64,000 nucleotides of DNA. Source: an uncultured Gammaproteobacteria bacterium (GTDB lineage: Bacteria > Patescibacteriota > Patescibacteriia > SBBC01 > CAIJZX01). The stretch spans positions 1,923-65,922 of the forward strand of contig CAYNGY010000004.1 of assembly GCA_964397195.1 (NCBI GenBank), read 5' to 3'. Position 1 is the stretch's first letter; every line of letters begins with the position of its first letter. Of this stretch, positions 20,705 to 38,772 are shown piece after piece. The notes beneath the pieces are model-generated. The model saw only the letters and a list, made by a program, of their open reading frames with translations. It did not search any database and was not told where the DNA came from. Both the position numbers and the translations under genes were made by a program.

Positions 20705-20731
20705 ACTGTCCCCCTCCTAGTTATATGGTAA

Positions 20732-21213: not shown

Positions 21214-21759
21214 TTAAACTTTCTTGATTTGAAGGAAATCGAGTTCCACCGGAGTTTCGCGTCCGAACATCGACACCAACACTTTGACCTTGCCGCGACC
21301 TTCGTCAACTTCCGCCACTTTTCCTTCAAAGTCTTTAAACGGACCGTCAACGATTCGCACCGGGCTACCGGCTTCAACGTCAATCTTGTATTTCGGCTCT
21401 TCCACACCCATCCGTTGCATCAAGGCCTTCACTTCCTCCTCGGAAATCGGGGTTGGCGTTGTACCTGAACCGACGAATCCGGTCACGTTCGGCGTATTAC
21501 GCACAACGTACCACGAGTCGTCAGTCACGATCATTTCTACCAAGACGTACCCGGGGAAAAGTTTCTCGGTGATAATCTTGCGCTTACCGTTCTTAATGCG
21601 AATCCGGTTTTCTGTTGGAATCAGCACCGTGAAGATCTTATCCTCCATGTCCATGGATTCGATACGTTGACGGAGGTTACGGGCCACGTTTTCTTCATAC
21701 CCGGAGTAGGTGTGAAGGACGTACCAGCGCTTTCCCTGTTGGAGAACTTGTTTGGCCAT
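21214..21759 (-). CDS. nusG: transcription termination/antitermination factor NusG
   Basis: NGN plus KOW domains (WYVLHTYSGYE..., GPFKDFEGKV). Confidence 0.9.
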   Translation of the reverse strand: MAKQVLQQGKRWYVLHTYSGYEENVARNLRQRIESMDMEDKIFTVLIPTENRIRIKNGKRKIITEKLFPGYVLVEMIVTDDSWYVVRNTPNVTGFVGSGTTPTPISEEEVKALMQRMGVEEPKYKIDVEAGSPVRIVDGPFKDFEGKVAEVDEGRGKVKVLVSMFGRETPVELDFLQIKKV

Positions 21760-21760
21760 G

Positions 21761-21949
21761 TTACTTCAGAATAACGTTCTGGAAAATATAGCTAAAAAGG
21801 AGGTCACATAACCCGAGAAACACCGCCACAAAGAGACTAATCCCAATCACGAGGAGGGTGTTATTTCGAGTTTCCAGCCATCGCGGCCAGCTGACTTTCC
21901 GGAGTTCCTCGAATGATTCGCGGAAGTACCGGCTTAATGATGTTGCCAT
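21761..21949 (-). CDS. secE: preprotein translocase subunit SecE
   Basis: 62 aa, single TM, F.ELRKVSWP motif. Immediately upstream of nusG. Confidence 0.85.
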   Translation of the reverse strand: MATSLSRYFRESFEELRKVSWPRWLETRNNTLLVIGISLFVAVFLGLCDLLFSYIFQNVILK

Positions 21950-21954
21950 AGTAA

Positions 21955-21981
21955 CTCACTTCGAAAAGGCCCTCGGGGCCT
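21955..21981 (-). terminator. intrinsic terminator after the M3 peptidase gene
   Basis: AGGCCC-TCG-GGGCCT hairpin followed on the minus strand by TTTTCGAAG. Confidence 0.45.
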
Positions 21982-22017
21982 CAACAGACCGAAGCATACC
22001 ATGTGGATTTCGGCCTG

Positions 22018-24051
22018 TCAACGTCCCCGGAGGCCGTAATGGCGCTCCAGGGGCCCCAAATCCGGCCCATGCCCCTTCAAGGCGCGAAAAGACGCCTCGC
22101 CAGTCCGACTGCCACCCACCGCCAAGATTTCCTGACGGTACCGACGACCTAATGCCGCCCAATGCTGCGGGTGGCCCCGTAACGGGGCAAAGGCATCAAT
22201 GGCTAATACTTCGGCCCACAGGTATGAGTAATACCCAGCATAGTACCCGTCACTAAAAATGTGACTGAAAGAATTGGGGAACCGATTCGTGCGCGACCAC
22301 GGAACGACACTGTAGTCGCGAAGAATCTGGTGCCAGAGTGTCGTTGCCACTCGGGCCGTAGGTTTTGTCTGTTGGTACAACCGAAGATCGTAGAGCGCAA
22401 ACTGCGTTTGGCGCAAAACGCGCATGGCCGCCATGTACCGTTGCGAGGCCAAGAGTTTTTTTCGCAGATCTGCCGGGAGTTTTTTCGCTCCCGACCGCGC
22501 AAACGTATCCCAAACCGTCGGTTCCCACGCAAACTGCTCAAACCACTGGCTCGGAAGTTCAATCACGTCCCACTCAACACCGTTCATACCGTCAACACCG
22601 GCCACCAGCGAGTCGCTCAGCAAGTGGTGCAAGGCGTGACCGAATTCATGGAACAACTCGGCAACCTCGCTATGGTTCAACCATGTTTCTCCGTTACGAT
22701 CGGGCGCCGGAAGGTTACAGACGATATAGGCCGCACCCGAGTGTAGCTTACCTCGCACCACGCGTCGTGGACGATCCTGGTTCATCCAGGCCCCACCGCG
22801 TTTCTCCGGACGACCGTGGAGGTCCAAGAGGATCTCGCCGCGCTTCCCCTGACGATCGCGGACTGATGCCATCATCAGGCCACGCCGATATCCGTTCGCC
22901 CACGGCGAAATCGTCATCGTCACCCCAAAGACCCGCTCAGCGGTTTTTGCTAATCCGGCTAAAACGGCGCGCATCGGGAAATACTGACGTAAGGCTTCGG
23001 CGGTAATACTGAAACGCTCATGACGGAACCGTTCCGCTACATAATCAACATCCCACGGTTGGAGTTTCGACAGGCCGATCCGAGCGCCATATCGGGACAA
23101 GGCTTGAAATTCAGCTGCGGCCGCTTTTTTTGACCGATGCGCTAAGCGAGTGATGAGGCGTGTCGCGCGTTCAGGGCGCTTCGCCATTCGATCGGCTAAA
23201 CGAGAATGGGCGTACGTGGGGTACCCAAGCAGTCGCGCCATCGCCTGTCGTTCTCGGAGGAGCTGTAAAATAATCGACGCGGTACTCATGGATCGAGGTC
23301 CAAGCTCCGAGGCAACAGCAATCGATTGCTGGTACAGCCGCTCGCGGAGTGACCGGGACGTCGCCGTACGCATCACCACCCCAGATTCGGCCCGACGAAT
23401 AGAAAATCGCCAGCCGGGAAATCCTTGACGTTTCGCTCGCTGCTTGGCGACACGGATAATATCATTTGGAATCCCGTCTAACTCACCGACGTCCGTTACA
23501 TCAACGACGACGGCATTCGTCGCATCAAGTAACCGCTGACTGAAGACCGAACGTAAATTCGCCACAGATCGAAAATGTTTTTCGAGTTTCCGTTTCTTGC
23601 TGGGTGGCAATCCCGCCCCGGCCATATACTGGCAAAAAATCATCCGTTTTAGGGCCCGGCGCTGCACCACCGATAGCCCCGACGTCCGCAGCAAGGCCTC
23701 TCGACGCGCCAACAGGCGTGTCGATTGTTGCTCTCGGGTTGTAAGTTTTGTCATCTCGCGATCACCAAACGTATTGATCTGTTTCCATCGCGGGGCATTT
23801 TCCGTTTGGAAAAAATGATGGCACCGATTCCAATACACCGTCAGTTCATCGTCAACGTTTTGGAACGGTACCACCGTATTTTCCCACGTCGGTTGGGCCG
23901 TATCACCTTCGACAGCCGTGATCACTTTTTTCCAGGCCGTCAGAATTGACTGCAGATGCGACAAAATCTTGGTCGGCTGCTGATGAAACAGCGACACCAT
24001 ATCACCCCAGCTCGGATCGATCGACGGCGTCTTAGACACGCCGTTCTTCAA
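22018..24051 (-). CDS. M3-family zinc metallopeptidase (oligopeptidase A/Dcp-like)
   Basis: HEFGHALHH (HExxH) in an M3 thimet-oligopeptidase context, 677 aa. Confidence 0.75.
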   Translation of the reverse strand: MKNGVSKTPSIDPSWGDMVSLFHQQPTKILSHLQSILTAWKKVITAVEGDTAQPTWENTVVPFQNVDDELTVYWNRCHHFFQTENAPRWKQINTFGDREMTKLTTREQQSTRLLARREALLRTSGLSVVQRRALKRMIFCQYMAGAGLPPSKKRKLEKHFRSVANLRSVFSQRLLDATNAVVVDVTDVGELDGIPNDIIRVAKQRAKRQGFPGWRFSIRRAESGVVMRTATSRSLRERLYQQSIAVASELGPRSMSTASIILQLLRERQAMARLLGYPTYAHSRLADRMAKRPERATRLITRLAHRSKKAAAAEFQALSRYGARIGLSKLQPWDVDYVAERFRHERFSITAEALRQYFPMRAVLAGLAKTAERVFGVTMTISPWANGYRRGLMMASVRDRQGKRGEILLDLHGRPEKRGGAWMNQDRPRRVVRGKLHSGAAYIVCNLPAPDRNGETWLNHSEVAELFHEFGHALHHLLSDSLVAGVDGMNGVEWDVIELPSQWFEQFAWEPTVWDTFARSGAKKLPADLRKKLLASQRYMAAMRVLRQTQFALYDLRLYQQTKPTARVATTLWHQILRDYSVVPWSRTNRFPNSFSHIFSDGYYAGYYSYLWAEVLAIDAFAPLRGHPQHWAALGRRYRQEILAVGGSRTGEASFRALKGHGPDLGPLERHYGLRGR

Positions 24052-25162
24052 AACGGAAGGTCACCATCGCCAGCCCAACCAGAATCACCGACCAACCCAT
24101 CATCCAGTACAAATCACCGGCAATGGCACCAATGCCGGCGCCATTTGCCATGACTTCCCGCAAACCGTGAGTCAGGTATTGGAGAGGTAAATAGTGCACA
24201 ATATGTTGCAGCCACGACGGCATCCCGTCGGTTGGGAAGAACGTGCCACCCAAAAATAACATCGGAAAAACGACGAGGTTCGCTATGGCCGGTACAGATT
24301 CGACAGTATTGGCGAGACCGGAAATGGTAAAACCTAAACCCAAGAACATAATGCTGCCGAGGAGAGCAACGAGCGCGACCAGCCACAACGACCCGTAGAT
24401 ATGCGTATGAAGTAGCCAGACACCAACCGACGTTAGGATCGCTGACTGGACCAAGGCCACAATCAACCGCGTCAAGACTTGGGCGGTCACAAACTGCTGC
24501 GGCTTCATCGGCGTCGCCAACAGACGTTTGAGTATCCCTTTTTCTTTGTAATCGGCAAAAACAAACGCCACCGAAAATACCGCCATCTGCATCAGGGCCA
24601 TACCGACAATACCCGGGAGCAAGAAATCAATGTATTTCGTTGACCGGACGCTCACCTCTTCGGCCCTCAGCGCAAAAAGCTGTGGTGCCCGGGTCATGGC
24701 CAATGTCGTCTTATCGAGGATTTGGTTCATGATGATTTCCACCATCTTGGCCTGCTGCAACTGCCCGACATTCTCCAACACGGTGACTGTCTTTGTGGAA
24801 ACTTGCTGGAGGTTTGCCGCCGACGGTCCGGATGGGATCAAATCGTTCGGGATGAGCAAAACGGCGGCTAATGTGTTCTTCTTGAGCGCGGTCCGGAGCG
24901 ACGCCTCTGTGTCCATGGTCACAGAAATATTCGGCGCCTGCTTCAATTGATCGATAAACTGTTGCGTGCCAGCATTCGGTTCCGCCGCCACAATGCCAAT
25001 CTTCGTTGGGACCACCTTATCGAATCCGACGAACCCAAAAATCGTCATGATCACCAAGGGCATGAACAGCGTAAAAAACAACGACTGTTTATTGCGCACG
25101 AACATCTTCATCGTTGAAATCGTCAGCGCTAGGGTGGTGTTCATCGCCATGGGTTTCGCCAT
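24032..25162 (-). CDS. ABC-2 type transporter permease
   Basis: Six TM segments and an ABC-2 family pattern. Follows the ATPase gene. Confidence 0.75.
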   Translation of the reverse strand: MAKPMAMNTTLALTISTMKMFVRNKQSLFFTLFMPLVIMTIFGFVGFDKVVPTKIGIVAAEPNAGTQQFIDQLKQAPNISVTMDTEASLRTALKKNTLAAVLLIPNDLIPSGPSAANLQQVSTKTVTVLENVGQLQQAKMVEIIMNQILDKTTLAMTRAPQLFALRAEEVSVRSTKYIDFLLPGIVGMALMQMAVFSVAFVFADYKEKGILKRLLATPMKPQQFVTAQVLTRLIVALVQSAILTSVGVWLLHTHIYGSLWLVALVALLGSIMFLGLGFTISGLANTVESVPAIANLVVFPMLFLGGTFFPTDGMPSWLQHIVHYLPLQYLTHGLREVMANGAGIGAIAGDLYWMMGWSVILVGLAMVTFRFEERRV

Positions 25163-25163
25163 A

Positions 25164-26090
25164 CTATTCGCGTAAACTACGACCGGTCAGTTTCAGGAAC
25201 ACATCTTCGAGCGTCGCCTGATGGAGCTGTAAATCGAAGATAGAAAATCCATGTTGGACTTCATAGCTGAAGAGCGCCGGGAGTGTCTTCTCCGGATCAT
25301 TTGTGAGTATCCGATAGGCGTGATCATCACGATCAACCTTTTCCGCACCCGGAAGCGACGCCATCACGCCGTCGGCCGGATGGGCGGTCACATGAAATTC
25401 AACCGTCGAACCAATGTCGGCCAACTTCAATAATTCCGCCGGTGTCCCGAGGGCGATGATTTTTGCGTGGTCCATAATGGCAATCCGGTCACACAACACC
25501 TCGGCTTCTTCCATATAGTGCGTCGTCAGGATAATCGTCTTCCCCTGCTTTTTAATGTCATGGATCAGGTCCCACAAATTCCGTCGCGCCTGCGGATCAA
25601 GGCCGGTTGTGGGTTCATCTAAATAGATCGCCTTAGGGTCATTGACCAGCGCCACGGCGATCGATAAGCGTTGTTTCTGACCGCCGGAAAGTTCTTTGAC
25701 CTGACGTTTGGCTTTTTCTTCGAGCTGGACTTGGCGCAAGAGCGCCATCGGCTCAACCCGTCGTCCGTACAACGCCCCAAAGGTCGTCAGTAATTCAGTC
25801 AGACTCAGGCCATCGAAAAAAGATGAGGCCTGTAATTGAACACCAATCAGGTGTTTGACAGCGTTCGTGTGACGCTGAACATCGAGTCCATCAAAGGTCA
25901 CCTGTCCGGAGGTAATTGGCTTCAATCCTTCAAGCATCTCCAAGGTAGTCGTCTTTCCAGCCCCATTCGGCCCGAGAATGCCAAAGGTTTCGCCACGTCG
26001 CACAGCGAAGGAAATCGCATCAACCGCGACTAGGTCGCCGTACTGTTTCGTCAGTTTCTGCGCTTCAATAATCGTATCCATACCGCCCAC
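25164..26090 (-). CDS. ABC transporter ATP-binding protein
   Basis: Walker A GPNGAGKTT, signature LSGGQKQR, Walker B. Confidence 0.9.
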   Translation of the reverse strand: MGGMDTIIEAQKLTKQYGDLVAVDAISFAVRRGETFGILGPNGAGKTTTLEMLEGLKPITSGQVTFDGLDVQRHTNAVKHLIGVQLQASSFFDGLSLTELLTTFGALYGRRVEPMALLRQVQLEEKAKRQVKELSGGQKQRLSIAVALVNDPKAIYLDEPTTGLDPQARRNLWDLIHDIKKQGKTIILTTHYMEEAEVLCDRIAIMDHAKIIALGTPAELLKLADIGSTVEFHVTAHPADGVMASLPGAEKVDRDDHAYRILTNDPEKTLPALFSYEVQHGFSIFDLQLHQATLEDVFLKLTGRSLRE

Positions 26091-26155
26091 ATCCTAGCAC
26101 ATCAGCGGCCTTCCCCGCAACCACTTTTTACGCAAAAAAGGCCGCCTAGGTTGCC

Positions 26156-26668
26156 CTAGACGGTGTCATCGAAGCGGTACAACGTGGCACTGCGGTAAAC
26201 ATCAGCGACAGACCGCCACGCTTCCCAGACCGATGACGGGATCTGGTAGCAGAGCGGGTTTGGACCATGACCGTTGGTCACGCCCAGGTCACGGGCGATG
26301 TGCTCTCGCGCTTCCGGGGTCCGAACAAAGAGTGACAACGCACCATCCGGCGGAAGCACCAGCGAGATTCGCTTCGCCCAATTCGGGGACACACGAATGG
26401 CCAGATTTCCGGCTAGATAGAGCGTCAGGTAGACGCCGTGAACGCGACACAGTTCGCCGACTTGCCCAACCGTCATGTCCGCTGGAAGATCCGTATTCGG
26501 GATCATCGTCGAAGCCGTCGTCCCATGCACGAGAATGTGCGGCTGTACATTGGGTGCCACTAAGCCAAGTTGTCCTAGTGTCAGATCCGATGACAGATCG
26601 GAAATCGTGTGACGACTGATCGTTTCCGCCACGAGATGCGCAAACTCCGCTGGCGTCCATGCCGCCAT
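26156..26668 (-). CDS. hypothetical protein (170 aa), first gene of the ABC-transporter/M3 peptidase operon
   Basis: ORF with typical codon usage; no recognisable motif. Confidence 0.4.
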   Translation of the reverse strand: MAAWTPAEFAHLVAETISRHTISDLSSDLTLGQLGLVAPNVQPHILVHGTTASTMIPNTDLPADMTVGQVGELCRVHGVYLTLYLAGNLAIRVSPNWAKRISLVLPPDGALSLFVRTPEAREHIARDLGVTNGHGPNPLCYQIPSSVWEAWRSVADVYRSATLYRFDDTV

Positions 26669-26700
26669 CGTCGCTCACCTCCTTTAAGGTACGAGAAAGA

Positions 26701-26913
26701 TTATTGCGAGAGAATACTGTCGATATTGTAGGACTTCAATAACGTCGGCAAGACAATCGCAATTCCGATCAACGGAATCACGGCGAAAGCCACCGTCAGG
26801 ATAATCGTCCATAAAAACATCGTCCGAGCGGAATGGGCCACGCGATAGGTAGCATCAACTTTTTGCTCGAGTACCGTCAGACGTGAATTGAGTTCCGGAT
26901 CCATATCTGGCAC
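26701..26913 (-). CDS. small membrane protein (70 aa)
   Basis: Single TM helix. Adjacent to the next small TM ORF and gyrB. Confidence 0.4.
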   Translation of the reverse strand: MPDMDPELNSRLTVLEQKVDATYRVAHSARTMFLWTIILTVAFAVIPLIGIAIVLPTLLKSYNIDSILSQ

Positions 26914-26914
26914 T

Positions 26915-27163
26915 CTAGCACAGATACGAAGAACCGACGACCGAGAGGTGTAGCTGCTCAGCCGGCCCCGGAATCAAGACAATCAGCCAGCCCACTAAGG
27001 ATAAAATCAGAACCACCAAGGTTAATGCGGCATACCATCGATACGATTGCTCGGCCGCGGGTCGACGAACCGACTGGGATGCATACCACCACAAAAAGAC
27101 CACGCACACACCGATCACCACTGGCAGTCCCCAGCGGAGCGTCGTGAGAATCGTGGTGGCCAT
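26915..27163 (-). CDS. small membrane protein (82 aa, 2 TM)
   Basis: Start 2 nt after the gyrB stop. Confidence 0.4.
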   Translation of the reverse strand: MATTILTTLRWGLPVVIGVCVVFLWWYASQSVRRPAAEQSYRWYAALTLVVLILSLVGWLIVLIPGPAEQLHLSVVGSSYLC

Positions 27164-27164
27164 C

Positions 27165-29276
<2,112 letters not shown>

Positions 29277-29320
29277 CTAAGAATAGCATAAAAGCCCCCG
29301 ACCCGCCAAGCCGTCTCGAC

Positions 29321-29349
29321 TTGACAATCCGGCCATTTTATGATAGTGT
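29321..29349 (+). promoter_or_regulatory. promoter P1 (TTGACA-17-TAGTGT), a copy of the cassette promoter family
   Basis: cTTGACAatCCGGccaTTTtATGATAGTGT aligns with P2 and P3. Confidence 0.5.
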
Positions 29350-29385
29350 CGCGACCGTCCCACCACGTCCACCCGGAGGCTCGTC

Positions 29386-29595
29386 ATGGCCAAGCAAACG
29401 GACACGGCGGCCATGATGGCTACCGCGGATGGGAAGACGGAACTTCCAAGAGAAACCATGCACCCGCTGACGCGCGCCAGGCGCCGTCACCAGGCCGTTA
29501 TGCACCGGCCCGACTCGTCTCTAGCCGCACTGCAGACGCTGCTCCATCAGTGGCACTCCAGTCGTACTGGAACGGATCACCACGGCGCCAATTAA
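29386..29595 (+). other. small ORF (69 aa) or cis-antisense sRNA in a high-GC mini-cassette
   Basis: SD GGAGG 6 nt upstream of the ATG. About 63% GC. Antisense to the 3' end of the 460-aa gene. The predicted peptide is low-complexity, so coding status is uncertain. Confidence 0.3.
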
Positions 29596-30880
29596 CACGC
29601 GCCGCATGCACAAACCCGGGGTCGGCGACCACGAGTTCGCTCGGTCGCCGCCTCCCCCGCCCCTGTGGCACCTCAACTGCACGGGCGGATTTTTGTTCCA
29701 AGAGTCTTTCCAGATGAGCAACCAACGCTACATGATCGACTAAAAACTCCTCTGGTGCCTGACGCTCCTGAAGAACACTGACCTGTTCCCGCAATTGCGT
29801 GAGTAACGCCGCCGGGATTTGCTGTTCCCAGAGATAATCTTTTCGCCAGTCTTCAACTTCGGGTACACCGACTTTTGCCGCTGGGCCAACAGTATCGGCC
29901 GCGCGTTCTAAATAATATCGATTCGACATGGTTTTTATTCGATCTCGGGTGACTGCGAAAACAACTCTAATTCCAGTAGTGTTTTTTGGGACATCGGCGG
30001 TATCGTATTTTGAGGTGACAAATGGATTTGCGACCGAATAGTGCAGCTTCTCTGCTAATGAAGGCAGGCTCCCGGAAACAGTAAAATCTGTCGCTAGACG
30101 AATCTTTCGACTCTGTGCATCATTGGTAACCGGCAATTTAATACTGACCCAGCCATCAAAATGTTGGAGAACATCCGAATGCTCATTTGTAGGACTAACC
30201 TGAACCTCAGTGTTATCACCAAGGGCTTGTGAATCAGCTAACTGTTGGAAGAACGACAGTTCGAGTTGTTCGTTCTCACGCATTTCTTCCTTACTAATCT
30301 CGTGAGTAAGGCCACCTTGAAACTCTCTATAAGTCTTTTCTCGAACCATATCAAGACTCTCCGCATCTCGTTCAGAGAAAGTTATTGGCTCACCATCCGG
30401 CCCATGTGTCGCCCGTGTATTCCAAGATATTTGGTCAAGTTGTCCTTGCCGTGTCGCCTCTGCCTCAAGCTGAACCCCAATCTCTCGTTCTCGTTCCGCC
30501 ATTGCCGCCGCCTGATGCGCGAATCGAGCCTCGACTTCTCGGGCCTGCCATAGGCTAAACTTTTTTTCCTGTTCGCGAATATTCCAAATGTAATCCCGGT
30601 CGGTCAGCGCCTTGATTCTTGGCTTCTTTAGCGTGCCATCGAGAATGAGCTTTCTCCGATATGCCTCAGCTATATCGTCCGTTGTTTGCGCCTCGGTAAA
30701 CCCAGCCGCTCGTTCTTGCTCGACCAATGCCGATTCAAATGATCGTATGGCCTGCATTCGAGCATCACCTGCCATACTCTCAATGGAGAGTAAAAACTCC
30801 TGCACCGCCTCGGGCGTGGTCAGAACCGTATCTGACGCGACTGGTTCAGTTTCAGTGGCGAATTCCTCTTCAGTGCTCAT
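29498..30880 (-). CDS. hypothetical soluble coiled-coil protein (460 aa), ATGA-coupled to pheT
   Basis: No TM segments and a central Glu/Arg-rich coiled coil. The last 80 or so codons lie in the high-GC mini-cassette and may be a read-through extension. Confidence 0.5.
   Translation of the reverse strand: MSTEEEFATETEPVASDTVLTTPEAVQEFLLSIESMAGDARMQAIRSFESALVEQERAAGFTEAQTTDDIAEAYRRKLILDGTLKKPRIKALTDRDYIWNIREQEKKFSLWQAREVEARFAHQAAAMAEREREIGVQLEAEATRQGQLDQISWNTRATHGPDGEPITFSERDAESLDMVREKTYREFQGGLTHEISKEEMRENEQLELSFFQQLADSQALGDNTEVQVSPTNEHSDVLQHFDGWVSIKLPVTNDAQSRKIRLATDFTVSGSLPSLAEKLHYSVANPFVTSKYDTADVPKNTTGIRVVFAVTRDRIKTMSNRYYLERAADTVGPAAKVGVPEVEDWRKDYLWEQQIPAALLTQLREQVSVLQERQAPEEFLVDHVALVAHLERLLEQKSARAVEVPQGRGRRRPSELVVADPGFVHAARVNWRRGDPFQYDWSATDGAASAVRLETSRAGA
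29623..29695 (+). terminator. tandem hairpins plus T-tract ending the P1 transcript
   Basis: GGCGACCACGAGTTCGCTCGGTCGCC hairpin, then CCGCCC...GGGCGG followed by ATTTTTGTT. Confidence 0.4.
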
Positions 30881-33120
30881 GAACGCTCAACGACTCGCAT
30901 TGATGCTAAGGTCGTGATAACTTTTTTCATCGCCCGATCAACCTCGTCTTTCGTCAGGGTGCGAGATGCATCTTGAAAAACCAAGCGTAAGGTCATTCCG
31001 CGTTGTCCGGCGTCGCGAATCGCATCAATCGCCGTCACATCGGCCAATGACGCTATTTGGGCCTGCAATAATCGTTCACGAGCCGCCCGGAAAGTCAGAT
31101 CCGCCGGCATCGTGACCGCAACATCGCGAATAATGTCCGGGTGCTCTGACGGCGGGATAAACACCCGTGGTCGCCGCGATGTCAGAATCTCCCGACAGCC
31201 TATTTCAGCCCAAGCGAGTCGGCGTCCTTTATTTTCCATGGTCAGAATCTGCGGCACGGCATTCGTCCCCATAGCCGTCATGAATTCATGAACGACCCCT
31301 AAGATAGCCCATTCCGGAGCGAGCGTCGGCGATTCTTTGCGTGCCACCCCGATCATCACTTTCCAGGGCTGGCGCGTTTCAACGTCGCCCTGTCCAGACT
31401 CAAAAACGCGACCGACTTCGAACAGATACGCATCCTCCCCCGCATCAGACGCGCGCACCAGTGCGTTACGCATCGCCGGCCCCAGACTTCGTCGCAAGAA
31501 TTGCTGGGTTTTATCGAGTGGATTCGCCACGGTTACATGATCGCCGCCAACACTGGACGCATCCGCGTGACTGTAGTAGGAATGGGTAATCATTTCGGAA
31601 AAACCCATCGCCGCTAACGTGTCACGAATATCGTCGCCAAGGTGCACGATTGCGGGCAACGCCTCCGGTACCGACGCGACCGACGGCATCACTCGCACTA
31701 CACCCGCATACCCAACCACTTTCCCAATATCATCGAGAATATCCTCTGGACCGCGAACATCAATTCGCCAAGCCGGCACCTTGAGTCGCCACGTTTTCCC
31801 CGTCGCTGCTGTCGTGAAGCCAAGCTGTTGCAGGATTCGCTTCGCCCGCGGGAGTGGTACCGATACGCCAAGGCGCGGCAACCACACCGCCGTATCAAAC
31901 GGTACCGATGCGGTCGATACTTTTTGTTTTCCGACCACGGTCAGGGCCCCAATGGTCACCCGCGAATCAAGCGTGACCATTAAGGCCGCCGTCGCCTCAC
32001 TCACTTCCGTTGGCAAACTTGACCAGAGTCCCCGCTCAAAACGCTTCGATGACTCACTGCCCAGACCAAGCCGACGCGCCGTTCGACGAATCGAGATCGG
32101 ATCAAATATCGCCGCCTCGAGAATGACATCGGTCGTTGTTTCCGTCACTTCGGCTCGCTGGCCACCCATCACTCCCGCAATCGCCACCGGTCCCTGGTCA
32201 TCGGCAATCACCAGCGTCTCCGGCGTCAGCAATCGATCGACACTATCAATCGTCACGATGTGTTCACCCGTCTGCGCCAGCCTGACTACGAGGCTCCCGA
32301 CCACCTTGGCCGCATCAAAGGCATGGAGCGGCTGACCGTACTCAAGCATCATATAATTCGTCACATCAACCATGACGTGAATTGGACGCATCCCCATTGC
32401 CTGGAGTCGTTTCTGCATCCAGAGCGGTGATTGACCGTGCGGGATATTCCGAATATACCGCGCTGTGTACTGCGGACAACCGGCGGAGGTTTTTACCGAC
32501 ACCCGCGGACCTTTTTCCCGGCTGGCCGCCCGGACCTTCTTTACCACTGGTATCACCAGCTGCCGATCAAGAATAGCGCTCGTCTCGCGTGCTAGTCCGC
32601 GAACAGACAGCAGATCGGCTCGATTTGATGGGACCGCGATTTCCATCACCACATCATCAAAACCCATGACGGTCGCAAAGTCGGCACCAACCGGTGCGTC
32701 CGGCGCAAGCACAAGTATACCGGAGTGATCCGAACCGAGGCCTAATTCATCAAGCGCACAGAGCATGCCGTTCGACACCACCCCACGAATCGGACGCGAG
32801 GCAATCGTCACGCCGTTCGGCAGTGTCGTGCCGAGTGTCGCCACCGCCACGCGTTGCCCAATCGCGATGTTCGGCGCACCGCACACAATTTCTTCCGGTT
32901 GACCGGCGGGACGGAGCCGGACCATGGCCAATCGTAATTTATCCGCCTGCGGGTGCGGTCGAATCGCAGTAATCTCTCCGACCACAACCCCATCGAATGC
33001 GTGACGACGATCCTCAATATTCTCCACTTCCAATCCATGCATCGTCAATAACTCCGGCAGCGCTTCCGCGGTCGGAAGTTTCGGGATATACGATCGTAAC
33101 CAAGAATAGGAGAGTCGCAT
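30877..33120 (-). CDS. pheT: phenylalanyl-tRNA synthetase beta subunit
   Basis: tRNA-binding, B3/B4, B5 and class II-like catalytic-like domains. Confidence 0.9.
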   Translation of the reverse strand: MRLSYSWLRSYIPKLPTAEALPELLTMHGLEVENIEDRRHAFDGVVVGEITAIRPHPQADKLRLAMVRLRPAGQPEEIVCGAPNIAIGQRVAVATLGTTLPNGVTIASRPIRGVVSNGMLCALDELGLGSDHSGILVLAPDAPVGADFATVMGFDDVVMEIAVPSNRADLLSVRGLARETSAILDRQLVIPVVKKVRAASREKGPRVSVKTSAGCPQYTARYIRNIPHGQSPLWMQKRLQAMGMRPIHVMVDVTNYMMLEYGQPLHAFDAAKVVGSLVVRLAQTGEHIVTIDSVDRLLTPETLVIADDQGPVAIAGVMGGQRAEVTETTTDVILEAAIFDPISIRRTARRLGLGSESSKRFERGLWSSLPTEVSEATAALMVTLDSRVTIGALTVVGKQKVSTASVPFDTAVWLPRLGVSVPLPRAKRILQQLGFTTAATGKTWRLKVPAWRIDVRGPEDILDDIGKVVGYAGVVRVMPSVASVPEALPAIVHLGDDIRDTLAAMGFSEMITHSYYSHADASSVGGDHVTVANPLDKTQQFLRRSLGPAMRNALVRASDAGEDAYLFEVGRVFESGQGDVETRQPWKVMIGVARKESPTLAPEWAILGVVHEFMTAMGTNAVPQILTMENKGRRLAWAEIGCREILTSRRPRVFIPPSEHPDIIRDVAVTMPADLTFRAARERLLQAQIASLADVTAIDAIRDAGQRGMTLRLVFQDASRTLTKDEVDRAMKKVITTLASMRVVERS

Positions 33121-33121
33121 A

Positions 33122-34123
33122 TTAGAATCGTTGGATCAAACGCGGATCACCGCCATAAAAGACCCGGACATCGTGAACACCGTATTCCAGCATCGCCAAC
33201 CGATCGAGTCCCATACCAAAGGCAAAACCTTGCCAGTGCGACGGCGAGCGCCCCATCGCTTTGATCACGTTCGGATGAACCAAGCCAGCACCCAAAAGTT
33301 CCATCCATCGCGGTTTCTGACCCGGCGCTTCGTACCACACATCCAATTCCATCCCCGGCTCAACGAATGGAAAAAAGCTTGGCCGGACTCGGGTTCGGGC
33401 CGTCGGGAAAAGGCGATGAATGAATAATTCCAACGTCGCAATCAGGTGCCCCATCGTCACCTGATGGTCAACAAAAACTCCATCACATTGCATAAACATG
33501 GATTCGTGGGTCGCATCCGTCGCTTCGTTCCGATATACCTTCCCGATTTCGACATACCGCACCGGCGCATCCGACGGCGCGTGATGCTTGAGAGCACGAA
33601 GTTGCACGGTCGACGAGTGGGTTCGCAAAACGAGGCGCGGTTCGTTTTTGATAAAAAACGTATCTTGAATATCACGAGCCGGATGGTCCTTTGGTACGTT
33701 CAGTCCATCAAAGTTATACCATTCGTCCTCAAGTTCCGGGCCGTCGTGGACGGCGTAGCCGAGACTTTGCCAAATCATGCGCACCCGACGGGCGTAGGCC
33801 GTCAACGGATGGAGTCGGCCCCGCTTCCACGGCGCGCCCGGGAGCGTCAGGTCAAACTGCATGTCCGGTGTATGGATCGCCCGGCGATGTGTCTCAATCG
33901 CTTGGGTCAGCGTTCGTTTCGCCGCGTTTAATCGGTCCCCGGCTACCCGCCTAATCGACGGCGGCAATTCGCTTAATCCAGAAAATCGTGCGTTCAAAAG
34001 ACCGTTGCGCCCGAGGTACTTCGTCGACAATCCTTCAATGTCAGCCAAGCTGGTAGTCGCATGAACCGCCTGCAAGGCCGATTGTAATTCCGCATCAAGA
34101 CCGAGGAGTGGATCGTTACTCAT
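33122..34123 (-). CDS. pheS: phenylalanyl-tRNA synthetase alpha subunit
   Basis: Class II motifs (FMQCDGVFVD, ...GAGLVHPNV). Confidence 0.9.
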   Translation of the reverse strand: MSNDPLLGLDAELQSALQAVHATTSLADIEGLSTKYLGRNGLLNARFSGLSELPPSIRRVAGDRLNAAKRTLTQAIETHRRAIHTPDMQFDLTLPGAPWKRGRLHPLTAYARRVRMIWQSLGYAVHDGPELEDEWYNFDGLNVPKDHPARDIQDTFFIKNEPRLVLRTHSSTVQLRALKHHAPSDAPVRYVEIGKVYRNEATDATHESMFMQCDGVFVDHQVTMGHLIATLELFIHRLFPTARTRVRPSFFPFVEPGMELDVWYEAPGQKPRWMELLGAGLVHPNVIKAMGRSPSHWQGFAFGMGLDRLAMLEYGVHDVRVFYGGDPRLIQRF

Positions 34124-34529
34124 GGGACATCACGTATGAATGTTCTGACTGGTGACGCGCTTGACCGGCCTGGAAGAACGCTTCAATTCCTACCGCCACC
34201 ACAAATGCCAAACCACCGGTCCAGACGCTCAGTAAACTGCCTGCCTGGAGTCCCAAAAAAACAACTGTCAACGTGCTGAGATTCACCGCCTGCCGAGCGG
34301 CCACGGCCATTTGGCGGTACGGAATCGTCTGACGCTCAAAAAGATGGCGCGCGAGGAAACCAATAATCGTCGCCGTCCCGAGGATCGCCAACCACAGACT
34401 CGAAAAAAAGAGGGTCGGGGCGATGCCACGGCTCGATTCCGGGTTGATTTGCCATAGCACCACAACCCACGTACCCCAGGACAATGCGGTGCCAATAGCG
34501 CTGAGCACAAGAAATCGAACAACCGTCAT
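34116..34529 (-). CDS. small 4-TM membrane protein, first gene of the pheST operon (leaderless)
   Basis: Overlaps the pheS start by 8 nt. ATG lies 8 nt after the TATAAT -10. Confidence 0.5.
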   Translation of the reverse strand: MTVVRFLVLSAIGTALSWGTWVVVLWQINPESSRGIAPTLFFSSLWLAILGTATIIGFLARHLFERQTIPYRQMAVAARQAVNLSTLTVVFLGLQAGSLLSVWTGGLAFVVAVGIEAFFQAGQARHQSEHSYVMSHE

Positions 34530-34537
34530 ACCGCATG

Positions 34538-34566
34538 ATTATACTGATTTTTCCAGCAATCGGCAA
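34538..34566 (-). promoter_or_regulatory. promoter of the pheST operon (TTGCCG-17-TATAAT)
   Basis: Minus strand TTGCCGattgctggaaaaatcagTATAAT, then 8 nt to the ATG (leaderless). Confidence 0.5.
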
Positions 34567-34624
34567 CATGCCGACCGACCTTGACGACGGCGTCCTGTTT
34601 CGGCAGGATACGTTCATCACAGGC

Positions 34625-34752
34625 AGCAGGGTGTCCGAACGGTATGGACTGGTCTCAGCCCCCAGAACCCAGAGGAGAGGAGGAAGCCGATGGACTCCTT
34701 GATCGGCATCCAAGAGTGCCTCTGGTTGCGGGTTCGAATCCCGCCCCTGCTG
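34625..34752 (+). ncRNA. tRNA-like element (canonical T-arm and acceptor stem, type-II-like D- and V-arms, aberrant middle): degenerate or insert-containing tRNA, or a tRNA-like RNA
   Basis: GCGGG-TTCGAAT-CCCGC T-arm at 34728-34744. Acceptor 3' strand CCCTGCT with discriminator G at 34752. The only complementary 5' strand, AGCAGGG, is at 34625-31. D-arm-like TCC-GAACGGTAT-GGA follows. V-arm-like CCAAGAG-TGC-CTCTGG at 34710-25. Total 128 nt, too long for a normal tRNA. Confidence 0.3.
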
Positions 34753-34974
34753 CCGAAATCGCACATCGCACGCTTCACCCTACCTGTGCCGGCCCGGAAC
34801 CGTCTCGGTCGGGAAGTTCCGAGGGGCCCCGAGTCGCGTCTCTGGGCCGGCACCTTCCGTGGGCCATGTTCGTTGCTGAACGTGGCTCGCTTTTTTTATT
34901 CCGTAAAAATCCTAGCAAACACCGGCCCATGCAAACGAAACTGAAAAAATGCTGAACGAGTTATCAACACCCAA

Positions 34975-35210
34975 CAACCGTTTGGTTTTTCCTCCGAGCG
35001 TAACAGTTAACGACTCAATTCGGCGGCGAGTGATAGCGAGCCGTACCGAGACAAGAGCGGTCGGTCGGACAGCGCAGACGTCAAACTTGCTTTGCGGCTC
35101 GCGATGCCCGACCGACACACAAGAGGGAAAAGGAGGCAGCGAAGCCCCGCTCCGTCCGGAGCGATGGGCGTCAGCGTCGGAAGGAAAAACCGTCTGGTTT
35201 TTCCTCCGAG
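34975..35210 (+). repeat. two direct copies of AACCGT[TC]TGGTTTTTCCTCCGAGC 211 bp apart, flanking a long imperfect hairpin
   Basis: Copies at about 34975-34999 and 35186-35210 (24 of 25 identical). Between them, GTCGGTCGG...CCGACCGAC can pair. Confidence 0.5.
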
Positions 35211-38144
35211 CTACACCGCCCGAAATTCGCAGATGTCCTTGAAGTCGCAGTACTTACAAATCATCTCATTCGGGGTCGGTCGGAAGTCGCCACGCTGAAT
35301 ACCAGCCACCGTATCGCGAACCCAATCAAGTGCCCCGGCCGCGTCTTTCTCGCTCGGCGTCATCGTCCGCGATTCATTTTCATCAATGAAGTAATACTCG
35401 AGCTCCTGGACATCACCGTCAAGGATGTGCGGATCTTTCACTGCCAGGGTATATATCAATAACTGGTATTTGTCGTCACGTTCAAACTTCTCTTTTACCT
35501 TTCCTGTTTTGTAATCCACAATCTTGACCAACGGTTTTTTTGTATGCGCGTCCACTCCAATCTGATCAATCCGATCAATCGCGCCGGTAATCACAAACTC
35601 ATCGATCTTCAAATTGAACACCTGTTCTAACCGCAAAACGTTCGGCCGGGCACTGATGGTCTTTTCATACCACCCTTCGAGCGCCGCCTTCCCTTTCACG
35701 TAGTATTCCTGTCGCTGTTTCTTTGACTGATACCACTCGTCAATGAACGACTGCTCGTACATGGTTAAGAGCTCCGGCAGTGTTACATCCTTTCCGCCAT
35801 CCGCCTGGCGGGCTTTCTGGAGGGAAAAGAAGTTAAAAAGCGTTTTATGAATCGATGATCCATATGATAACGCATGACTCCCTTTTTTCGGAATCTGGAG
35901 TACGAAGGCGTAGCGGTATTTCCAAGGACAATCATTATACGTCGACAGTTTCGTGAAGCTAAAAGACTTTTCACGCGTCAGGTACGCCGCGACTTCCTGT
36001 TTCTCCACCGCGGTCGGAATAAAATCACGTATCGGCAACGGCGGTTTCTTCTCGGCCGCGACCGGTGGCGCCAACAGTTGTAACTCGTACATGAATGGAG
36101 ACGGTTTTTTACGCCGCGTCCCGCCGTAATCTTCGGCCAACGTGAAAAATACACCATCACGCGCCCGGGTAATCGCCACGTACATCAACCGCCGCTCTTC
36201 TTGGACATGCGCATCGCCGCTCGGTAAGTGCTCACGAATGAGCGCGTCGGGCACCGGGATCGCATCCGCCCGATTCATTCCCGGGAATCGCTGTTCAACA
36301 ACATTACCGATAAAAACATACGGAAACTCCAAGCCCTTGGCTGAGTGAATGGTCATGATCTTGATCGTTTCCGGCCCGCTCTCAAGATCACGCTCGAGGG
36401 CTCCCGCATCACCGGAGTCAGTGACATGGTCGATGTATTGGAGAAAGGCCCGAACGGTAGCTGGACGTTCGCCGTGCTGAAATGTTTCGATTGCTTTGAA
36501 AAACTGCCTGAGGTACGAGGCGTTCTGATGCGTCTGCGCCGACTCATCTTTCGTCATTGTCTTGAGATATCCCGAGTCATTCAAAAACTGAAGCGCCACC
36601 TCGCCAACCGGCTTTGATTGTGCCGACTGGGCGTGCTGGTGTATACCGTCAAGCAATCGGGCTACCCCGGCGCGCACCGCGTCCGTTACTGTCAGATCAT
36701 CAAGGTGTTGGAGTTGCTCGAAGAGTGACCGCGTTTTCTTTTTGGCCATATGGCTCAACTCGATAACAGCATCATGATCGATCCCCCAGATCGGCATGGC
36801 AACCACACGGTACATCGCCGCCGCTTCATGGTAATTGTCGAGCAGTCGCAGGTAGGCCAAAATATCAAGCACCACCGGCTTCGTAAAGAGTCCGCGGGCG
36901 GCGAAAAAGGTGTACGGGAATCCGCGTCGCTCAAACTCCTGTAGAAAAATCTGGGCGTGGTCATTGGCACGGACCAAGACGCAAAAGGCATCCCACTTCA
37001 CCTCGGGATTTTGTGCCCGAATAGCCTCGATTTTTTCCGCCACCGCTCGCGCCTCGGCTTCCTGCGTTTCCTGATGGAAGACCTGGATTTCACCGGCGCC
37101 TAGACGCTGGGCCTGGAGTTGTTTTGAAATCTGGAGCCCACCGAGATCGCTCACTTTCGCTTCCAAGCGGTCTGGATTATTTTGCTGGATAAAATGGTAG
37201 GCGGCATCCAAAATTGATTGCTTCGTCCGATAGTTCTTGGTCAGGACCACCACTTCCGCCTCCGGAAAATCTTTCTTAAACGCTAAAATATTCGAGACCG
37301 ACGCCCCACGAAATTTATAGATCGACTGGTCATCATCACCCACGACCGTCAGATTATTGCGCGGCGCCGCCAGACGCTTAATCAACTCAAACTGCGCCCA
37401 GTTGGTATCCTGAAACTCGTCGACCAAAACATATTGGAATTGCTGTTGATACTGTTTGAGAATTGCCGGGCGTTCACGCAGAAGCCGCAGTGTATAGAGA
37501 ATCAGATCGCCGAAATCAAGGGCGTTATTATCGAGCAAGAGCTGATTATAGGTCGCATAGGCTCTCGCCAGCTCCATAATCCGATCCGCCTCAGCTCGAT
37601 CTTCCTCGCTCTTCTTCGTTTTTCCTTTACCAAGCTTCTTGGCGTGGTCGAGATACTCTACCGGCGAAATATCCTCGTCTTTCAGGCGCGAAAAATGCTT
37701 GACTAGGGCCGAGATAAACTTCGTCGGGTTCCCCAATGGTCGGTAATAATCAAGTTCGAACTCGTCGAGGTGCTCACGAATCAACAGCCACTGATCGGTC
37801 TGCGACAGCAACCGAAAATCATTCGACAGGCCGATATCAAGCGCGTGACGTTCAAGGAGTCGCTGACCGAAGCCATGGAACGTCATCACCCATAAATCAA
37901 CATATCCATACGGTAAAATTTTCTCGACCCGCTCCTGCATTTCCCCGGCCGCTTTGTCGGTAAAGGTTAAGGCCAGGATGTTGTCCGATGGAATCTGTTC
38001 GTGCATGATCAGGTGGGCGATGCGCTCCGTTACGACCGTCGTTTTTCCGGTGCCCGCGCCCGCCACAATCAATAATGGGCCTTGGCCATGCTGGATGGCG
38101 GCGCGTTGTTCGGTATTGACGGTGTCCGGAATTTGGCCTGGCAT
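35211..38144 (-). CDS. UvrD/PcrA-family helicase fused to a C-terminal RecB-family (PD-(D/E)xK, Cys-cluster) nuclease domain
   Basis: Walker A GAGTGKT and UvrD motifs. C-terminus DYKTGKV...YQLLIYTLAV...CKYCDFKDIC resembles AddA/AdnAB nuclease domains. Confidence 0.75.
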   Translation of the reverse strand: MPGQIPDTVNTEQRAAIQHGQGPLLIVAGAGTGKTTVVTERIAHLIMHEQIPSDNILALTFTDKAAGEMQERVEKILPYGYVDLWVMTFHGFGQRLLERHALDIGLSNDFRLLSQTDQWLLIREHLDEFELDYYRPLGNPTKFISALVKHFSRLKDEDISPVEYLDHAKKLGKGKTKKSEEDRAEADRIMELARAYATYNQLLLDNNALDFGDLILYTLRLLRERPAILKQYQQQFQYVLVDEFQDTNWAQFELIKRLAAPRNNLTVVGDDDQSIYKFRGASVSNILAFKKDFPEAEVVVLTKNYRTKQSILDAAYHFIQQNNPDRLEAKVSDLGGLQISKQLQAQRLGAGEIQVFHQETQEAEARAVAEKIEAIRAQNPEVKWDAFCVLVRANDHAQIFLQEFERRGFPYTFFAARGLFTKPVVLDILAYLRLLDNYHEAAAMYRVVAMPIWGIDHDAVIELSHMAKKKTRSLFEQLQHLDDLTVTDAVRAGVARLLDGIHQHAQSAQSKPVGEVALQFLNDSGYLKTMTKDESAQTHQNASYLRQFFKAIETFQHGERPATVRAFLQYIDHVTDSGDAGALERDLESGPETIKIMTIHSAKGLEFPYVFIGNVVEQRFPGMNRADAIPVPDALIREHLPSGDAHVQEERRLMYVAITRARDGVFFTLAEDYGGTRRKKPSPFMYELQLLAPPVAAEKKPPLPIRDFIPTAVEKQEVAAYLTREKSFSFTKLSTYNDCPWKYRYAFVLQIPKKGSHALSYGSSIHKTLFNFFSLQKARQADGGKDVTLPELLTMYEQSFIDEWYQSKKQRQEYYVKGKAALEGWYEKTISARPNVLRLEQVFNLKIDEFVITGAIDRIDQIGVDAHTKKPLVKIVDYKTGKVKEKFERDDKYQLLIYTLAVKDPHILDGDVQELEYYFIDENESRTMTPSEKDAAGALDWVRDTVAGIQRGDFRPTPNEMICKYCDFKDICEFRAV

Positions 38145-38150
38145 GGAATA

Positions 38151-38765
38151 TTATCCTCGCTGTTGGCTAATCATAATTGCTCTCCCAGTGTATCCACCTA
38201 TAAACTCCTTAATGGGAATTGGACGCGCCACCCAGTTTTGTTCCTCGATCTTTGATGTGTGATGGAGATAGAGGTGCGTCACAACCCCATGATCGAATCT
38301 GTACCCAACCACCACCGCCAGATGACCACCATATTTTTTCCAAAAAAAGAGTTGCTCTTTGAGCGTCTTCGTATTCTGCAAAGCCCATTTAATCGAAACG
38401 ATGGGGAGTCGATTTTGATCAATCGCCGCACGGAGTTCCTCCACACCAACAGGCTTCGCCGCCGCCAAGCATCCGTATTCGGTAGCAATGGCACATAATC
38501 CCTGATGACTCCAGCCATGCTGGTCGGTATACGCATGAAGTCGAAGGCCTGTCTGCAGGAGATCCTGAAACAACACATCGCGATGGAGCAAGAATTCAAA
38601 TGTCATTTGTAGGCACAAAATCCCACAACACGACTTCTGCCAATATTCGGCATCGTCCCGACTCGTAAAACCTAGCCGTGACCACACATCAAGATCCCAG
38701 TGCTGAGTATGGAACGGCACTGACAGCACCCGTTCTGGGACAGGCTCGGTTGTTGGCATTGTCAT
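38151..38765 (-). CDS. peptidase C39-like domain protein (papain-fold Cys/His)
   Basis: LSVPFHTQ...SCCGILCLQM and GGHLAVVVGY resemble the Peptidase_C39_2 family. No signal peptide. Confidence 0.5.
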   Translation of the reverse strand: MTMPTTEPVPERVLSVPFHTQHWDLDVWSRLGFTSRDDAEYWQKSCCGILCLQMTFEFLLHRDVLFQDLLQTGLRLHAYTDQHGWSHQGLCAIATEYGCLAAAKPVGVEELRAAIDQNRLPIVSIKWALQNTKTLKEQLFFWKKYGGHLAVVVGYRFDHGVVTHLYLHHTSKIEEQNWVARPIPIKEFIGGYTGRAIMISQQRG

Positions 38766-38772
38766 GACCAGC

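Follow-up and report, generated by a model that had tools for sequence, protein, structure and literature searches.

In the window, that is, the whole 64-kb stretch of DNA that was analysed, the gene for a 460-residue protein (here gene X, on the minus strand) lies between pheT and gyrB, and its 3′ end is met from the opposite strand by a small unit made up of a predicted promoter, a Shine-Dalgarno (SD) sequence, an open reading frame (ORF) of 69 codons and a pair of GC-rich hairpins. A first-pass annotation of this DNA had picked out the promoter, SD, ORF and terminator hairpins as a self-contained plus-strand unit, convergent with and antisense to the 3′ end of the 460-residue gene, and all of these parts are indeed present. 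They lie opposite the last 81 codons of X, in the GC-rich patch that the annotation had also remarked on (61.9% GC over 29321-29740 and 65.5% over 29350-29700, against 54.4% for the whole window). The features, with the grounds for calling them, are as follows.

29281..29309, minus strand: likely gyrB promoter (inferred from direct reading)
29321..29349, plus strand: predicted sigma-70-type promoter of the small gene (direct reading, pattern enrichment, positional conservation)
29321-29326, plus strand: -35 box TTGACA, followed by a 17-nt spacer
29341-29342, plus strand: TG of an extended -10
29344-29349, plus strand: -10 box TAGTGT
29375-29379, plus strand: SD sequence GGAGG, 6 nt upstream of the ATG at 29386
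29386..29595, plus strand: small protein gene, 69 aa (MAKQTD...HHGAN), with its stop codon at 29593-29595 included (ORF list, family alignment, leave-one-out profile, codon usage)
29596..29656, plus strand: 3′ UTR of the small gene, including GC hairpin 1 (about 29617-29658)
29657..29697, plus strand: intrinsic-terminator-like hairpin 2 (29657-29688) followed by A-TTTTTGTT (29689-29697), within X codons about 395-408
29498..30880, minus strand: gene X, 460 aa, between pheT and gyrB (ORF list, phmmer homologs, AlphaFold2 model)
29591..29629, minus strand: codons for X residues 418-430, with the C-terminal helix motif VADPGFVHAARV (alignments, pLDDT)
29498..29595, both coding sequences (CDSs): CDS-on-CDS overlap of 98 nt

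Predicted promoters and gene order at the X loci

The predicted promoter of the small gene, TTGACA-N17-(TG)n-TAGTGT, is 36 nt upstream of the ATG, and the spacing of its hexamers is within the sigma-70 range (16-18 nt). The pattern exceeds chance: the window holds 4 instances of the strict form TTGACA-N17-TAnnnT where 0.29 are expected, and none of 100 shuffles reached 4. Moreover, TTGAC[AT]-N17-TA[GC]nnT is found at the equivalent place in all eight of the other X loci, and a purine-rich SD stands 5-8 nt upstream of the start codon in each of the seven others that were tabulated. A generic consensus scanner flagged neither the small-gene promoter nor its terminator, owing to its own hexamer and loop rules, and returned near-chance numbers of sites across the region. 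This scanner result is what can be said for the notion that nothing functional lies here, and that a promoter-like site, an ORF and hairpins have come together by accident in a GC-rich spacer upstream of gyrB. We consider that very improbable, since all the features occur together, in the same relative positions, at nine loci that have diverged beyond DNA alignment, and since a profile of the small gene matches the window frame at E=3.5e-7 (see below).

On the other strand, back-to-back with the predicted small-gene promoter, is a putative gyrB promoter with TTGGCG as its -35 (29309-29304), a 17-nt spacer, TATTCT as its -10 (29286-29281) and TGC before the -10. The gyrB-side motif TGCTAnnnTTAGCG(T/C)AAA is common to most relatives; locus L083 is one base off and L084 is without the TTAGCG part. 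When metagenomes were scanned with the gyrB-leader DNA pattern, no contig was found beyond the one already known; the contig of the window can also be assembled from run SRR12487045. A minus-strand 5′ leader or riboswitch of gyrB was considered as a separate candidate and rejected: its fold is no better than that of shuffles (z=-1.3), there is no Rfam match, and the frame under selection is on the plus strand.

The order pheT, X, opposite-strand small gene, gyrB was found in all nine X loci that were fetched, and this layout is kept down to 20% identity of X, where the DNA between loci is too diverged to align and the features nevertheless recur at the same relative positions. The overlap of the two CDSs, 98 nt in the window, is 41-98 nt in the 8 tabulated loci, and gene calls put it at 68 nt in L088 as well. 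In the window it sets X residues 429-460 opposite residues 38-69 of the small protein, which hold the conserved PDSSLAALQTLL helix; the terminator lies about 100 nt deeper in X than the CDS overlap. None of the nine X loci is without the small-gene unit, and among the 83 X-less gyrB loci that were fetched, which include the close relatives L082, L084 and L092, neither the X profile nor the small-gene profile has a match. Judging from these loci, X and the small gene are a pair that would be ancestral to the X family and that is confined to the pheT-gyrB slot of a Kerfeldbacteria-like branch of Patescibacteria. From this strict co-occurrence we infer that the two proteins work together.

Gene X and the insertion question

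A word-indexed protein search with X recovered X alone, and an exhaustive phmmer search was required; against 1.84 billion representatives, it found 11 homologs of X, 7 of which align to query residues 425-434. A metagenome scan with the four closest X sequences gave no relatives, and neither X nor its neighbours have any real match in Pfam, NCBIfam, PADLOC, PHROGs or PDB sequences. With 12 distant homologs, the alignment of X extends to about residue 430, and in the resulting 13-sequence alignment D420 and F423 of the motif VADPGFVHAARV are invariant. The AlphaFold2 model of X (pLDDT 80) has a confident helix at 421-430 (pLDDT about 90), preceded by a disordered linker at 402-414 and followed by a disordered tail at 434-460, with pLDDT below 50 from residue 434. 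That tail is unconserved as well as predicted to be disordered, and it is only these last 27 or so residues that look like a tolerated extension.

These results bear directly on one of the two explanations offered in the first-pass annotation, namely that X had been hit near its 3′ end by an autonomous mini-cassette and now read on into foreign sequence, with homology expected to stop near residue 380. There is a jump in GC from 49% in the body of X to 65% in its tail, as an insertion might be expected to leave, and the unconserved, disordered last 27 residues are in keeping with it. However, the ortholog alignment that the annotation had itself proposed carries homology to about 430, well inside the GC-rich patch, and includes the helix at 421-430 with its two invariant residues; for the sequence up to that point the idea of a foreign read-through tail is refuted, and most of the supposedly foreign C-terminal region turns out to be conserved. 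Nor does the cassette behave as a newcomer, since the same layout is seen at every fetched X locus, down to 20% X identity, and the pair keeps constantly to the pheT-gyrB slot. By blastn, the element has no copies or repeats in the window or in 80 gyrB loci, and it has no match among plasmids and phages. We regard an insertion as hardly tenable.

The 69-residue protein

Counterparts of the small ORF lie antisense at the 3′ end of X in six other loci (L083, L085, L086, L087, L088 and L089), and their alignment reveals common motifs: (A/P)KDG in a basic, disordered N-terminus and, after it, two helices joined by a PD turn, of which the second carries PD(S/P)SLAxLxxL. Identity is low, at 17-34% between the window protein and the other members, and BLASTP of the window peptide against the L083 peptide alone is not significant (E=0.81); the homology becomes clear only with more members. 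A leave-one-out profile built from the six other loci and searched against 16,785 six-frame segments recovers the window frame at the E value given above, the next match being at 0.42. Five of the six clear relatives are 67-71 aa long and that of L087 is 99 aa. The family is very small: its clear members number seven, and a search of 5.8 billion proteins yielded a single addition. L091 and L093 have basic small ORFs in the right place, of 56 and 50 aa respectively, which fall below profile significance (E=3.1 for L093, no match for L091); they may be counterparts, by position only.

Selection acts in the small-gene frame. Between L086 and L089, the 50 codons outside X have 14 synonymous and 12 non-synonymous changes, which gives pN/pS of 0.32 in the small-gene frame against 1.2-2.6 in the other frames (binomial p=0.004), the exception being the mirror frame, which has 4 stops; the test is of a single pair with 26 substitutions. 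Selection on X is no explanation for the conserved motif in L085, where that motif falls clear of X. The small-gene frame also has the best codon-usage score among the six. AlphaFold2 gives a disordered basic N-terminus and helices at 27-39 and 44-65, amphipathic or polar (pLDDT 68, pTM 0.30). The protein is already present, called and nameless, in NCBI and Logan sources (P0134), and it has no sequence match in Pfam, NCBIfam, PHROGs, PADLOC or PDB. Taken together, the alignments and substitutions identify the 69-aa ORF as what appears to be a conserved small protein under purifying selection in its own frame.

From this perspective, the second explanation in the first-pass annotation, that an RNA function was as likely as a protein and that the unit might be a cis-antisense RNA of type I toxin-antitoxin-like geometry, does not fare well. 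In its strict form it would make the unit a cis-antisense sRNA some 340 nt long with no coding role, its 69-codon ORF being a by-product of high GC. A GC-rich patch open in several frames (ORFs of 125, 69, 66, 60 and 55 aa) and a biased peptide composition could be read that way, and the plus-strand fold has z=-2.4. Against this, even loci too diverged for DNA alignment share the peptide motifs, the reading frame, the start codon and the SD, the excess of synonymous change is confined to the small-gene frame, and that same frame has the top codon-usage score. Rfam gave no match at gathering score anywhere in the 64 kb and, with thresholds relaxed, only noise at E >= 1 (E up to 10) in 29150-29850, and ARAGORN found neither tRNA nor tmRNA. 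The likeness to type I toxin-antitoxin loci goes no further than the antisense position of a small ORF relative to the transcript next to it: the product of the ORF is hydrophilic and basic, has no membrane helix and, unlike type I toxins, is no membrane toxin; it has no match to known toxin families; and both partners are protein-coding, the one opposite being the gene for a conserved 460-aa protein and not a small RNA. There is, in our estimation, little chance that the unit is non-coding.

The putative terminator within X, the overlap and their possible meaning

The stretch at 29657-29697 is a stable GC-rich hairpin with a U-rich tract directly after it on the transcribed (plus) strand. Hairpin 2, with the pairing CCGCCC.CUGUG/loop/CUGCA.GGGCGG, has a folding energy of -18 kcal/mol (z=-2.6 relative to dinucleotide shuffles). 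A hairpin and T-run stand at the homologous position of X in all nine loci, at -16 to -19.5 kcal/mol, and z was -2.6 or lower for 6 of the 7 distinct hairpins folded (that of L093 was left out of the shuffle comparison). In each case the hairpin and T-run are placed just after the LLEQ(R)K motif of X, inside X codons, and in all tabulated loci 74-104 nt separate the small-gene stop from the T-run. The stems vary by locus (CCGCCC, GCCCGC, CCUCCGCC, CCGCGGAG, CCUCUGCGC, CCUCCUCACGCG, CCUCCG, CCUCAC), and part of the shared CCUC...GAGG stem could mirror the (D/N)L...E(V/E) residues of X and not selection on the hairpin. On the X strand there is no T-run after the hairpin; the putative terminator is thus one-directional. 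The 3′ UTR between (29596..29656) is antisense to codons of the conserved C-terminal motif of X.

The comparison of loci demonstrates conservation of both predicted proteins, of the small-gene frame, and of the putative promoter, SD, terminator and overlap layout. The simplest reading, to which we assign a probability of roughly 80%, is that the plus-strand unit is a real gene for a 69-aa protein, convergent with and terminating inside an intact X, and that the two form an ancestral, lineage-specific pair. The small gene would be transcribed from its own sigma-70-type promoter, back-to-back with that of gyrB, and its transcription would run convergently into the 3′ end of X until stopped by an intrinsic terminator lying within the X reading frame. 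The U-run is antisense to the codons of the conserved LLEQ(R)K with which the last long helix of X closes, and the hairpin is encoded by codons of the disordered linker after that helix. X itself is intact, continuing through the linker into the conserved C-terminal helix and then an unconserved, disordered tail opposite the conserved second helix of the small protein. With the two transcripts bound to overlap, each could in addition exert antisense control over the other.

Whether the overlap does more than bring two genes together is where a dual function enters, as a supplement to the convergent-pair reading and not a replacement for it. The mRNA of the small gene might also act as a cis-antisense RNA, pairing with the X (pheST-X-gyrB) transcript through its 3′ UTR together with the final 98 nt of its coding sequence, such that convergent transcription or cleavage of the duplex by RNase III opposes X against the small protein, and possibly against gyrB read-through. 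At 9/9 loci the two CDSs overlap and the putative terminator falls inside X, and the length of the 3′ UTR hardly varies (74-104 nt); this suggests that the overlap as such is preserved. The X strand showed no strong terminator downstream of X, so transcripts of X probably cross the whole small gene. On the other hand, in genomes as compact as those of Patescibacteria the overlap may be no more than an economy of space, the fold of the plus strand beats shuffles by only a small margin (z=-2.4), and no RNA family matches. One transcript may, as a lesser effect, act on the other in cis through antisense pairing; the full dual-function proposal we hold to be somewhat doubtful.

On the convergent-pair reading, what had been suspected to be an insertion or an sRNA is instead a clear instance of two convergent genes that overlap and that form an ancestral pair. 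Two uncharacterised protein families of Patescibacteria are thereby defined, X and a partner of about 70 aa, always together between pheT and gyrB. The putative terminator falls within a disordered linker of the protein encoded opposite and keeps its structure as its sequence changes, which makes it a neat case in nature of a single stretch of DNA answering to both coding and RNA-structure constraint. For organisms beyond culture, the locus would also supply usable examples of a promoter, an SD and a terminator. The result is modest and lineage-restricted, and it rests on sequence.

With respect to known systems, the small protein resembles the class of small basic helical-hairpin “hypothetical proteins” in its disordered Arg/Lys/Pro-rich N-terminus and two helices, and differs in being strictly tied to X and to the pheT-gyrB slot. 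The X model has an alpha-beta-beta-beta-alpha-beta core that may recall the PD-(D/E)XK nuclease fold, and residues E207, D236, D242, D265 and K278 are invariant; X is without a sequence-family match, and the possible likeness comes from the model core and from Foldseek top matches (MspJI, AspBHI and SPARDA nuclease domains) that are all non-significant (E >= 0.6, TM about 0.15). A bolder proposal, which we put forward as unlikely though worth stating, is that X and the small basic protein make up an undescribed two-component module of Patescibacteria, possibly a nuclease-like enzyme with its partner or inhibitor, with expression hard-wired by the tail-to-tail overlap and the linker-encoded terminator kept by compensatory changes, all in dual-use sequence next to gyrB.

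The nearest parallel for the overlap is the excludon, reportedly a concept of Sesto et al. 2012. Convergent genes whose 3′ UTRs overlap are documented to give rise to regulatory antisense RNA, which RNase III processes (PMC7821165). As in excludons (PMC7821165), convergent protein genes here have transcripts that are bound to overlap, so that the 3′ part of one mRNA is antisense to the CDS of the other, with scope for RNase III processing or transcriptional interference; the sequence-level overlap of convergent units by which excludons are recognised was found at all nine loci. The hairpin, for its part, is like rho-independent terminators in having a GC-rich stem-loop of 6-13 bp and an immediate T-rich run in one orientation only, and unlike them in that its T-run is interrupted (TTTTTGTT) and that it lies inside the coding sequence of the opposite strand. 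What sets this locus apart from described excludons is that the overlap of X and the small gene includes 98 nt of CDS on CDS, and that the putative terminator is embedded in the disordered-linker codons of the partner across a whole protein family.

Features of the pheT–gyrB interval

The small gene lies among three minus-strand genes in a row, pheT, X and gyrB, in a window of 54% GC from a Patescibacteria genome whose GyrB has its nearest named relatives in "Candidatus Kerfeldbacteria". The first-pass annotation had described a promoter, a Shine-Dalgarno (SD) sequence, an ORF, two GC-rich hairpins and a T-run antisense to the 3' end of X. Each of these is present in the sequence, and its observation is thus confirmed, while its interpretation, an inserted cassette or an antisense RNA, finds support only in part. 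The plus-strand features below were read from the sequence and the minus-strand genes from the ORF listing.

29321-29326, plus strand: -35 element, TTGACA
29341-29349, plus strand: TG-n-TAGTGT, after a 17-nt spacer
29375-29379, plus strand: SD sequence, GGAGG
29386-29595, plus strand: 69-codon ORF, ATG start at 29386
about 29617-29658, plus strand: first GC hairpin
29657-29688, plus strand: second hairpin, then A-TTTTTGTT
27165-29243, minus strand: gyrB
29498-30880, minus strand: X, 460 aa, no known family
30877-33120, minus strand: pheT

GC content is 61.9% at 29321-29740 and 65.5% at 29350-29700, compared with 49% for the body of X and 54.4% for the window. The second hairpin has a folding energy of -18 kcal/mol (z=-2.6), and the plus strand of 29350-29700 folds somewhat above shuffles (z=-2.4), with the minus strand of the same region no better than shuffles (z=-1.3). 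The window contains 4 matches to the strict promoter pattern where 0.29 would be expected, the other TTGACA-N17-TAnnnT sites being at 809-837 (plus), 21993-22021 (minus) and 51738-51766 (minus). The last of these has TTTATGATAGT in common with the small gene's promoter and lies where a 506-aa membrane-protein ORF (50227-51747) begins, an ORF that spans most of the 64% GC kilobase 50001-51000; another GC-rich kilobase is 17001-18000 (62%). The likely gyrB promoter and leader (29270-29309, minus) carries the motif TGCTAnnnTTAGCG(T/C)AAA, common to most relatives examined, with one base different in locus L083 and the TTAGCG part missing from locus L084. Its -35 box is only 11 nt from that of the small gene, so that the two promoters stand back-to-back and divergent. 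Long ORFs are almost all on the minus strand in the 20 kb checked (20000-40000), cumulative GC skew falls steadily along 1-64000, and neither tRNAs nor Rfam families at gathering score were found in the whole 64 kb window.

Coding character of the small ORF

The best-supported reading is of a small protein gene that would be transcribed divergently from gyrB, run convergently into X and end at an intrinsic terminator encoded in the disordered linker of X. We compared loci that encode relatives of GyrB or homologs of X. In every X-homolog locus (L083, L085, L086, L087, L088, L089, L091 and L093, with the window), the order is the same: pheT, X, an opposite-strand small ORF and gyrB. For the window and five further loci, the small ORF was already among the gene-caller predictions; for L085, where it starts with GTG, and L087, where it starts with TTG and encodes 99 aa, we re-derived it by hand from the SD position. 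Seven of the peptides, aligned, have in common a basic N-terminus, an (A/P)KDG motif, a (P/A)D(P/S)SLAxLxxL motif and an ARRR-like tail. The motif reads HQAVMHRPDSSLAALQTLL in the window and HREVMHQPDPSLATLQSL in L085, where it falls outside X and is thus not explicable by selection on X.

Three further tests support, at the level of sequence, a coding gene. First, a leave-one-out profile of the six non-window peptides, run against six-frame translations of the window and all other loci (16,785 segments), recovers exactly window 29347-29592 (plus) at E=3.5e-7, the next match being at E=0.42. Second, the only closely related pair, L086 and L089, differs in the 50 codons outside X by 14 synonymous and 12 non-synonymous substitutions (pN/pS 0.32, binomial p=0.004), with other frames at 1.2-2.6 except for the mirror frame, which has four stops. 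Third, among the six frames, that of the window ORF scores best for codon usage. Against these three results, a purely non-coding RNA is very improbable. The AlphaFold2 model, of moderate confidence (pLDDT 68), has a disordered N-terminus and helices at 27-39 and 44-65 meeting at a PD turn. In L091 and L093, the small ORF at the equivalent position encodes a basic peptide (56 aa and 50 aa, respectively) with no significant similarity to the small-protein profile. The family is very small: a profile search of 5.8 billion proteins returned only these members and one protein designated P0138, and there was no Pfam, NCBIfam, PHROGs or PADLOC match.

The C-terminal end of X and the predicted embedded terminator

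A word-indexed protein search with X matched only X itself, and exhaustive phmmer against 1.84 billion representatives gave 11 homologs (19-32% identity in alignment), 7 of which align as far as query residues 425-434. In a 13-sequence alignment, residues 417-429, VVADPGFVHAARV, match AVADREFVHQARV, RIADPKFVHEARV and YRLxDxxFIRSA, with D420 and F423 invariant. The AlphaFold2 model (mean pLDDT 80, pTM 0.66) has a long helix with its last residue at 400, a disordered linker at 402-414, a confident helix at 421-430 and a disordered end at 434-460. Since homology and model both cover this end, the GC-rich hairpin region 29617-29697 is genuine X coding sequence. The proposal that the tail is foreign read-through, with homology expected to stop around residue 380, therefore fails for the conserved part; the final 27 or so residues alone, indeed unconserved, behave like a tolerated extension, and tails beyond the motif in the homologs vary in length without conservation. 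Elsewhere in X, invariant E207, D236, D242, D265 and K278 lie in a predicted alpha-beta-beta-beta-alpha-beta core, preceded by a predicted 64-residue helix (94-157), and the top Foldseek matches, all non-significant, are PD-(D/E)XK nucleases (MspJI, AspBHI, SPARDA). Taken together, they are at most a lead towards an enzymatic function.

The DNA of the X loci has diverged beyond alignment, and the layout recurs. The promoter TTGAC[AT]-N17-TA[GC]nnT is kept in 9 of 9, as is a hairpin of -16 to -19.5 kcal/mol with an immediate T-rich run; that all this is a chance feature is scarcely credible. Across eight tabulated loci, the SD lies 5-8 nt upstream of the start codon, the coding sequences overlap by 41-98 nt, and 74-104 nt separate the small gene's stop from the T-run. 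L088 stands outside this table, with an extra gene between promoter and small ORF and a 68-nt overlap by gene calls. In every case the T-run is antisense to the (L)LEQ(R)K codons of X, with the hairpin in the stretch of linker codons that comes directly after. Of seven distinct hairpins folded, six reach z <= -2.6, the exception being L091 with its short 6-bp stem. Stem sequences vary among loci with pairing kept, which argues that the hairpin structure itself is maintained, although part of the recurrent CCUC...GAGG could be due to the DL...EV residues of X itself. Read on the X strand, the hairpin has no T-run after it, and thus the predicted terminator can act on the small gene only.

Within the overlap, what is conserved and structured in one protein is opposite what is unconstrained in the other: the disordered tail of X faces the second helix of the small protein, and the conserved helix of X faces the 3' UTR of the small gene. 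Transcripts of X probably extend across the small gene, whose own mRNA would terminate within X; hence an excludon-like antisense effect (PMC7821165) is a plausible, if tentative, extra layer on the protein gene.

Co-occurrence and the question of insertion

Neither the X profile nor the small-protein profile has a match in 83 gyrB loci without X, including three close relatives, L082, L092 and L084. Such strict co-occurrence suggests that X and the small protein act together. The slot holds a 240-aa gene and an antisense 121/122-aa gene in L082 (4737-5842; DUF3232 match) and L092 (2722-3833), and a kinase-like gene in L084 (4831-5571). The pheT-gyrB slot is thus a variable hotspot among relatives; in L088 (4443-4817), X and the small gene are joined by a homolog (124 aa) of the 121-aa gene, in the same antisense operon as the small gene. 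In L093, four palindromic repeat copies, CCAGCTCTAAC...GTTAGAGCTGG, like a miniature repeat element, are inserted in the interval that separates gyrB from the promoter of the small gene (2230-2480). An origin of the small gene as a cassette that landed in X is highly unlikely, since the order is the same in all X loci, the 83 loci without X have no match to it, the window has no other copy, and no plasmid or phage match was found.

What stands out in the small gene and X is a conserved stretch of apparent dual use, as predicted terminator and protein linker. The system, with its two uncharacterised protein families, is a lineage-restricted case of a known arrangement, that of convergent overlapping genes with an embedded terminator.
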